4,005 nt of DNA, from the IMG/VR virus record IMGVR_UViG_2541047173_000019. The stretch is one strand, 5' to 3'. A program made the translations under genes and the position numbers. Below are positions 1,293 through 1,831 of the stretch, piece by piece. The stretch is from a virus (lineage: Duplodnaviria > Heunggongvirae > Uroviricota > Caudoviricetes). Under the pieces are notes generated by a model, which was not told where the DNA came from, did not search any database, and saw only the letters and a program-made list of their open reading frames with translations. Positions within the stretch are counted from its first letter, which is position 1. Every line of letters begins with the position of its first letter.

Positions 1293-1445
1293 CTATTGTT
1301 GAACTGGATTAAACCAGTAATTCTCTATTGCTCTTATTGTTACCATCGGATGATTGCCGGGGGTTATTTTAAGTTCGGGAGGAAAAGGCTCTCCATCAGC
1401 AGCCATCATTGAGTATGTGAAATCCGCCGACGCAGTCCCTTTCAT
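1293..1445 (-). CDS. 50-aa ORF in the -1 frame; either a separate coupled small gene or the C-terminal part of a frameshifted larger protein
   Basis: ATG at 1445..1443 overlaps the TGA (1444..1442) of ORF 1442..1831 (ATGA). The same frame is open upstream to 1650 and reads protein-like (..AERELSSPAAIASFYEESYSDDTGLPELLSLLEKFGIIMKGTASADF..). Stop TAG at 1295..1293. Below the ORF-track size cut-off. Confidence 0.35.
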   Translation of the reverse strand: MKGTASADFTYSMMAADGEPFPPELKITPGNHPMVTIRAIENYWFNPVQQ

Positions 1446-1831
1446 GATAATTCCGAATTTTTCAAGTAATGAGAGCAGTTCCGGTAATCCTGTGTCATCT
1501 GAATAACTTTCCTCATAGAAAGAAGCGATTGCCGCAGGAGATGACAGTTCTCGCTCTGCAATTTTTTTGTAGTTTTCCAGAATTCTTTTTTTGAATACTT
1601 TTCCTCGACATGAAAACCCATCACCGAGGCAATCCGCTTTGCAGTTTCTTCAGTATTCTGGTTGTTTGTTACCGAAACAGAGTACAATCCGGTAAACGCA
1701 TCGCGCACATTACGAGCCATATTATCAATGTATTTCTTCGTTGCAGATTCTAATTCAACTTCGTTCAGACGTTGGTGAAGTGCATGTGCTGCAATTTCCT
1801 GGATTTCTTTTAGTAAATCTTTAAATTCCAT
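1442..1831 (-). CDS. hypothetical early-left protein, 129 aa as written; the C-terminal third may be out of frame
   Basis: ATG at 1831 with GGAG 6-7 nt upstream. The N-terminal ~75 residues read as a plausible helical protein. Two A7 runs (plus 1586-1592 and 1562-1568) lie in the frame, and the -1 frame after them is open for a further ~90 codons. Confidence 0.55.
   Translation of the reverse strand: MEFKDLLKEIQEIAAHALHQRLNEVELESATKKYIDNMARNVRDAFTGLYSVSVTNNQNTEETAKRIASVMGFHVEEKYSKKEFWKTTKKLQSENCHLLRQSLLSMRKVIQMTQDYRNCSHYLKNSELS

Follow-up and report, generated by a model that had tools for sequence, protein, structure and literature searches.

Loss of one A from an A8 run as the probable cause of a split prophage gene in the ydfC slot of a dicBF-type operon of enterohaemorrhagic Escherichia coli

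Introduction

Bacterial −1 ribosomal frameshifting, as described for dnaX and the IS3-family elements, takes place on a lysine-encoding X_XXY_YYZ heptamer in the zero frame (A_AAA_AAG or A_AAA_AAA), is assisted by stimulators, and yields a longer product that is completed in the −1 frame (PMC4066793). In an E. coli reporter without a stimulator, −1 frameshifting on AAAAAAA amounts to 0.405%, and the IS911 stimulators raise it to 0.82%, the IS3 pseudoknot to 24.8% (PMC4066793 Table S3). A7 and U7 (T7) runs are strongly avoided in E. coli genes in all frames, with z-scores of −15 to −28 (PMC4066793). In the over-expression vector pDEST17 the sequence C-AAA-AAA gave 25-60% frameshifting (PMC1851650), so context may lift slippage far above 0.4%.

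Bacterial transcriptional slippage that is used for expression occurs on runs of ~9-11 nt (PMC1088944, PMC4256274), and programmed examples include mxiE, Thermus dnaX, IS elements and tssM1. In Citrobacter rodentium tssM1 the gene is interrupted at a tract of 11 A, which gives a truncated product, or a full-length one if the frame is restored on the tract; slippage is ~20-25%, and both forms were found experimentally to be required (PMC4256274). A further class consists of homopolymer-indel pseudogenes, in which a single-base change in A-run length interrupts a reading frame that orthologues keep whole (PMC1088944; ‘savior indel’ review PMC5009743), and in which the efficiently rescued cases have at least 9 A/T (PMC1088944).

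The locus described here was found in the window, by which is meant the whole 4,005-nt stretch of IMG/VR record IMGVR_UViG_2541047173_000019 (Caudoviricetes) that was analysed. It holds two open frames joined across A7 runs, and is best explained, at a probability of roughly 0.86, as one prophage gene broken by the loss of a single A (A8 to A7, at 1562-1568 on the minus strand) and not as a programmed frameshift. It resembles the homopolymer-indel pseudogenes in the change of A-run length that splits an ORF intact in orthologues, in the open downstream frame and in the original protein that slippage would restore, with a run of A7 where the efficiently rescued cases have longer ones. It shares with dnaX and the IS3 family the X_XXY_YYZ lysine heptamer in the zero frame and a longer product encoded in the −1 frame; unlike them, it has no detectable stem-loop or pseudoknot and no evident upstream Shine-Dalgarno-like element, its motif and two-frame layout are absent from homologues, and the frameshifting expected without stimulators is ~0.4%. 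With tssM1 it has in common the interruption at a poly-A tract; it differs in having 7 A, which is also below the run lengths of the other programmed transcriptional slippage examples, and in the further damaging mutations of its lineage.

Genomic setting of the locus

The window covers the immunity and early-left region of a dicB-type lambdoid prophage from enterohaemorrhagic E. coli (EHEC), and positions 1200-1900 are 100% identical to O157:H7 genomes. The genes around the split gene are from annotation, and the sRNA is from a search with Rfam:

2912-3313, minus strand: cI-like HTH repressor
2693-2884, minus strand: relB
2406-2693, minus strand: relE/parE
1973-2128, minus strand: DUF1391/ydfA gene
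1843-1971, minus strand: ydfB
681-732, minus strand: full-length DicF sRNA (RF00039; score 65.7 bits, gathering score 48, E = 2e-13)
308-496, minus strand: dicB
120-311, minus strand: DUF1482 gene

The published order of the dicBF operon is ydfA-ydfB-ydfC-dicF-dicB-ydfD (PMC5069750); together with the position of DicF and the neighbouring genes, it shows that the broken gene occupies the ydfC slot. The initial annotation had placed the gene where lambdoid phages carry exclusion or host-modulating genes, a description that can now be made more exact. The dicBF operon of Qin has the same slot and the same neighbours, with DUF1391/ydfA and ydfB upstream and DicF and dicB downstream (PMC5069750), although K-12 YdfC (72 aa) looks unrelated in sequence to the broken gene. 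The slot itself is variable and is found to hold 212-aa Ybl81-like proteins, a 179/186-aa family, or 113-138-aa forms in which the N-terminal module alone is shared.

Over its whole length the window is matched best, among complete genomes, by strain 2013C-3277 (99.2% identical). Compared with the O157:H7 locus L001, flanks 1-850 and 3800-4005 are ~80-90% identical and 850-3800 is practically identical, so the window comes from a mosaic variant. Among phage genomes, megablast matched the edge of ydfB alone, and tblastn found nothing beyond matches of 34% identity to residues 1-127 of the homologue P0001, in Stx phages.

Two further elements were seen on the minus strand. At 2365-2387, between relE/parE and the ydfA-like gene and thus upstream of the operon segment with the broken gene, is a terminator-like hairpin, TCCCTCTTTCGAGGGA, followed by T7. 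Between DicF and dicB, 487-692 gives a sub-threshold match to the STnc100 sRNA (32.2 bits against a gathering score of 47).

Two overlapping frames and two A7 runs

The initial annotation had described two minus-strand A7 runs in X_XXY_YYZ register, an open −1 frame, an ATGA overlap and a slip product of roughly 180 aa, all of which were borne out. On the plus strand the runs are T7 at 1562-1568 and 1586-1592; both (1831-1592) mod 3 and (1831-1568) mod 3 equal 2, and the first A of each run is a third codon base (TC A AAA AAA GAA at 1586-1592 and AC A AAA AAA TTG at 1562-1568). The −1 frame is without a stop from ~1650 to the stop codon at 1293-1295, the frame-0 stop TGA at 1442-1444 overlaps an ATG at 1445-1443, and insertion of one A gives a protein of 179 aa. 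The parts of the locus, with the runs numbered in the direction of translation, are as follows:

1293-1831, minus strand: span of the full ancestral gene, 179 aa if the run were A8, split here by a 1-nt deletion
1442-1831, minus strand: frame-0 ORF, 129 aa, WP_000394511.1 (ORF list and annotation); residues 1-90 are a conserved N-terminal module and 91-129 an out-of-frame tail to the TGA at 1442-1444
1586-1592, minus strand: run 1, A7, in frame, encoding S80-K81-K82; present in the intact genes too, with no frame change
1562-1568, minus strand: run 2, A7, the site of the frameshift mutation; A8 in the closest intact homologues (ACA AAA AAA ATT = T K K I)
1293-1562, minus strand: stranded C-terminal module in the −1 frame, I91 to Q179 and the stop at 1293-1295, still stop-free
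1293-1445, minus strand: 50-codon ORF at the ATGA overlap, a fragment of the C-terminal domain from Met130 onward

Downstream of run 2, the −1 frame runs through 89 codons without a stop, which happened in only 152 of 20,000 dinucleotide-preserving shuffles. The open frame thus exceeds chance expectation, and its translation is homologous to the C-terminal half of intact proteins.

Intact homologues and a single-base deletion

With the hypothetical fusion protein as query, single-ORF homologues of 177-186 aa that cover 98-100% of it were found in E. coli and Salmonella prophages. The closest, P0001-P0003, are 179-180 aa long and 77-91% identical to the fusion (P0001, 179 aa, 91%), whilst P0004-P0009, from E. 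coli and Salmonella, are 177-186 aa long and 61-68% identical; NY1601 and ETEC4068 have 186-aa forms annotated in their complete genomes. The intact genes hold the same position as the split gene, 3' of DUF1391/ydfB and before dicB or kilR. Comparison with orthologous prophage loci, as the initial annotation had suggested, thus found a single fused ORF (P0001-P0009, L018 and L019), which is the opposite of the two-ORF homologues lacking any fused form that it had named as evidence against its proposal.

All intact homologues read ...EEKYSKKEFWKTTKK-IAERELSSPAAIASFYEE... (KKEFWKTTKK-IAERE) at the junction, and the window tracks them in frame 0 as far as run 2 and in the −1 frame thereafter, which places the change of frame at run 2 only. 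Residues S80, K81, K82, E83 and F84, at and after run 1, do not vary among the aligned intact proteins. Of the slips that had been proposed, one at each run, the slip at run 2 would restore the homologue junction; that at run 1 fails, as it would give KKRILENYKK in place of the homologues' KKEFWKTTKK.

At the DNA level, the sole indel in the alignment with L005, L008 and L010 is in the A run, CAAAAAAAATTG in the intact genes (A8) against CAAAAAAATTG in the window (A7). Four more distant intact genes, which include the 186-aa genes of NY1601 and ETEC4068, have GCC AAA AGA ATC or GCC AAA CGC ATC at the position of run 2 and no homopolymer. Between intact genes the C-terminal module has a dN/dS of 0.15-0.27 at a dS of 1.2-1.8, and is therefore a real coding domain. 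One option of the initial annotation, a frameshifted gene with a real inactivating mutation at the A run, is upheld by the fused homologues and by the one-nucleotide gap opposite A8.

In ETEC and porcine strains, the 186-aa genes match the window at 97.7% identity across the N-terminal module (~1574-1700, minus strand). Just upstream of run 2 they diverge sharply from it, with a dS > 1 (L019 and L018; H92-H94 and H206-H208), and this change from identity to divergence indicates that a recombination joint between the N- and C-terminal modules adjoins the run.

The A7 allele in complete genomes

A native query of 261 nt (1440-1700) was searched against 5,426 complete E. coli genomes, of which 386 carry a full-length match. 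Judged from evenly spaced sampled rows (55 of 56), ~385 of the 386 are 100% identical over the 261 nt, and one record has a single SNP and unchanged length. The same query edited to A8 had no 100% match in the 5,426 genomes, its best match being 99.6% with one gap. The A7 carriers include O157:H7, O103:H2 strain 12009 and O111:H11, and the broken allele is the sole allele among complete genomes with this version of the gene. A7 is thus a true allele, fixed in EHEC prophages and constant in length. The core segment at ~850-3800 is practically identical across serotypes, with only the flanks mosaic, and this near-identity indicates that the wide distribution of A7 reflects one recent allele spreading with the prophage segment, not long maintenance.

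A form with A6 is represented by P0011, a 105-aa protein from assembly L015 (GCA_008122345.1). Aligned with the window over 2.9 kb, this assembly shows no mismatches and six single-base homopolymer deletions, and several of its genes are split; the A6 allele was therefore rejected as evidence of phase variation. In the 511-nt contig of P0012, a stretch with a precomputed PF00006 hit is joined to the C-terminal 80 residues, and the protein looks chimeric. Both L015 and P0012 appear to be database artefacts, which make the family seem more diverse than it is.

Domain organisation of the protein

As the initial annotation had stated, the protein has no recognisable family: searches of Pfam, NCBIfam, PADLOC and PDB profiles gave sub-threshold noise alone, and PHROGs gave matches to function-unassigned families alone. 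The N-terminal 60-95 residues match phrog_1363, phrog_2151 and phrog_9419, along with many proteins that have other C-termini. This module is common to many enterobacterial prophage proteins with unrelated C-termini, among them the Ybl81-like proteins of 208-214 aa found at this locus and several forms of 113-138 aa. An AlphaFold2 model built from a nine-sequence alignment is helical in the N-terminal module (pLDDT ~70-78); the model as a whole is poor (mean pLDDT 50.3, pTM 0.34) and is unusable outside that module. Outside this small family, the C-terminal module had no relatives in an exhaustive search of 1.84 billion representative proteins. A literature search on the gene, with the name ybl81 included, returned nothing.

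The frameshift lies at residue 90/91, which is the junction of the two modules, so that the 129-aa product keeps the complete N-terminal module followed by 39 nonsense residues.

Substitutions in the window lineage and the convergent partner gene

The 3' end of the split gene faces a convergent gene for a small protein, and mutations were found in both:

1344-1346, minus strand: R163M, from AGG to ATG by a T at 1345; seen at column 494 of alignment A1, with Arg in all nine intact homologues of A2
1070-1312, plus strand: convergent partner gene for a small CPAC...CPEH protein, 80 aa in relatives and 61 aa here (WP_001133046.1)

R163M is specific to the window lineage and is the single certain substitution in its C-terminal module; P0121, a database variant of the stranded 50-aa fragment, carries T157P, likewise at an invariant residue. 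The partner gene bears independent damage. A TCA to TAA change at 1253-1255 (A at 1254) creates S62stop and shortens the protein from 80 to 61 aa, and the continuation past the nonsense codon, GRSGPLKILQRPTIVELD, can still be read in frame. Two further replacements, S16L (T at 1116) and G30V (T at 1158), affect residues conserved in the four relatives examined. The partner is 80 aa long in every relative that carries an intact 179/186-aa gene (called beside it in L005-L013), and the last 20 nt of its ancestral form (stop at 1310-1312) lie within the 3' end of the 179-aa gene, from which the two look like a cassette.

The window lineage has therefore acquired four substitutions (R163M, S16L, G30V and S62stop) and one frameshift, and no synonymous change. 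The four are spread over ~700 nt in which identity to L005 and L008 is otherwise ~99%, and all are replacement or nonsense changes at conserved sites. By a rough hand calculation, an outcome of four out of four non-synonymous changes is expected in ~2% of cases if dN/dS is near 0.2 and in ~30% under neutrality. A selection test on the −1 frame of the A7 alleles had a single substitution to work with, in the A7 variant P0010, which is N118S in frame 0 and synonymous (GAA to GAG) in the −1 frame; the divergence is too small for such a test, and L020 is outside the region. Given the small numbers, and a change in P0010 that is synonymous only in the −1 frame, the signs of decay are supportive, not conclusive. 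They suggest that the two-gene cassette is under relaxed selection and decaying.

Programmed frameshifting and other readings

The initial annotation had also listed a programmed −1 frameshift, a reading that loses ground here. Recoding in use would mean that A7 yields the 129-aa and 179-aa products at a set ratio, by −1 ribosomal frameshifting on A_AAA_AAA or by insertion of one A during transcription, and that a small dose of full-length protein is functionally needed, for example because a harmful product is thereby kept low. The heptamer does stand in X_XXY_YYZ register in the zero frame, the slip product is the ancestral protein, the −1 frame is still open and A7 is the sole allele in 386 complete genomes of several serotypes; AAAAAAA is moreover shift-prone, as shown by the value with a strong pseudoknot and by pDEST17, and tssM1 is a precedent for slippage that rescues an interrupted gene. 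Against this, the 82 nt downstream of run 2 fold at −16.1 kcal/mol (minimum free energy), where shuffled sequences average −17.9 (z = +0.60), the 181-nt context around the run folds no better than shuffles (z = +0.35), and no Shine-Dalgarno-like element is evident by eye in the upstream GAAUUCUGGAAAACUAC, whilst the expected yield without a stimulator is ~0.4%. The homologues are single ORFs, three with an in-frame A8 and four with no run, so neither the heptamer nor the split layout is conserved. For transcriptional slippage the run would typically be at least 9 nt (8 in a few species) and conserved, and here it is 7 nt and unconserved. R163M strikes an invariant residue of the supposedly needed product, the partner gene has a nonsense mutation in the same lineage, and the near-identity of the segment across serotypes speaks of recent spread and not of long maintenance. 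On this balance recoding in use is unlikely. Slightly different is the idea of a selected ‘leaky off’ setting, in which A7 gives mostly the N-terminal module protein and a trickle (~0.4% or more) of the 179-aa protein; if true, the low dose would matter, for instance where a full dose of the C-terminal module is harmful. Such a setting would account for both the still-open −1 frame and the presence of the broken allele alone in the 386 complete genomes, and is nevertheless improbable.

Still less is to be said for the readings in which the A7 form is a transient state, a normal gene pair or an error. A phase-variable contingency locus, switched by replication slippage between A8 (on) and A7 (off) in mixed populations, would suit homopolymers as mutation hot spots, the presence of A8, A7 and A6 forms in databases and the strong avoidance of A7/T7 runs in E. 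coli genes. There is, however, no run-length polymorphism among the 386 complete genomes, the A6 form examined is an assembly artefact, and the A8 alleles differ from the window at further sites, so they are separate lineages and not switched variants; phase variation is very unlikely. Two translationally coupled genes, namely the 129-aa ORF and a separate 50-aa ORF starting at 1445, had been proposed as well, and both the ATGA overlap and the occasional calling of the 50-aa ORF alone by gene callers (P0121) fit the proposal. Its ATG, however, is Met130, which is invariant and internal to FGIIM(K/T)GTA of the intact proteins; the 39 −1-frame codons ahead of it (I91 to I129) are equally conserved and homologous to the intact proteins; no convincing Shine-Dalgarno sequence could be read 5' of it; and, bar this fragment, a free-standing 50-aa homologue is absent from the 1.84 billion representative proteins. 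Coupled genes can thus be given hardly any credence. As for a sequencing or assembly error that hides an A8 run and an intact gene, mistakes in homopolymer length are common and the related assembly L015 displays them, but A7 in ~385 of 386 independently finished complete genomes and A8 in none put it practically out of the question.

A gene broken by the loss of one A is the reading that remains in agreement with what was found, namely uninterrupted orthologues, a single mapped indel and a real allele. Weighing against it are a −1 frame that has not acquired any stop codon and would still yield the ancestral protein after one slip or one extra A in the mRNA, the high frameshifting on C-AAA-AAA in pDEST17, the P0010 change that is silent in the −1 frame alone, the broken allele as the sole one in complete genomes with this gene version, and a divergence since the deletion that allows no real test of selection.

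Proposed history and significance

In its ancestral form the gene, in the ydfC slot of a dicBF-type early-left operon (ydfA, ydfB, this gene, dicF, dicB), would have specified a protein of 179 aa with two modules, and the ancestral partner would have been a convergent gene for an 80-aa zinc-ribbon-like protein that overlapped its 3' end. After the deletion, normal translation would give the 129-aa protein, made up of N-terminal module residues 1-90 and the 39-residue out-of-frame tail. Judging by the many natural family members that are little more than the N-terminal module, this product may retain the function of that module. The C-terminal module would be made solely through unprogrammed slippage on A_AAA_AAA, for which the published reporter value is ~0.4%. 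A −1 slip at run 2 would recreate the exact ancestral ...TTKKIAERE... junction, and the resulting trans-frame 179-aa product would carry the junction peptide ...EFWKTTKKIAER...; since either such a slip or an extra A in the mRNA restores the exact ancestral protein, some full-length product is mechanistically to be expected. The event itself is an ordinary single-base homopolymer deletion and opens no new mechanism.

For annotation, the value of the finding is that WP_000394511.1 (129 aa) and WP_001133046.1 (61 aa) of EHEC can be regarded as truncated remnants of a 179-aa and an 80-aa gene. It also marks out a small convergent two-gene cassette in the variable ydfC slot of dicBF operons, which is better studied where it is intact, in strains like NY1601 and ETEC4068, than in O157:H7. 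The same truncation is visible in protein family models: PHROG 1363 fits the frameshifted 129-aa form end to end, with the out-of-frame tail included, and PHROG 10133 goes no further than residue 61 of the partner, so that these two families at least appear to have been modelled on the truncated (pseudogene) products and not on the intact 179-aa and 80-aa proteins.
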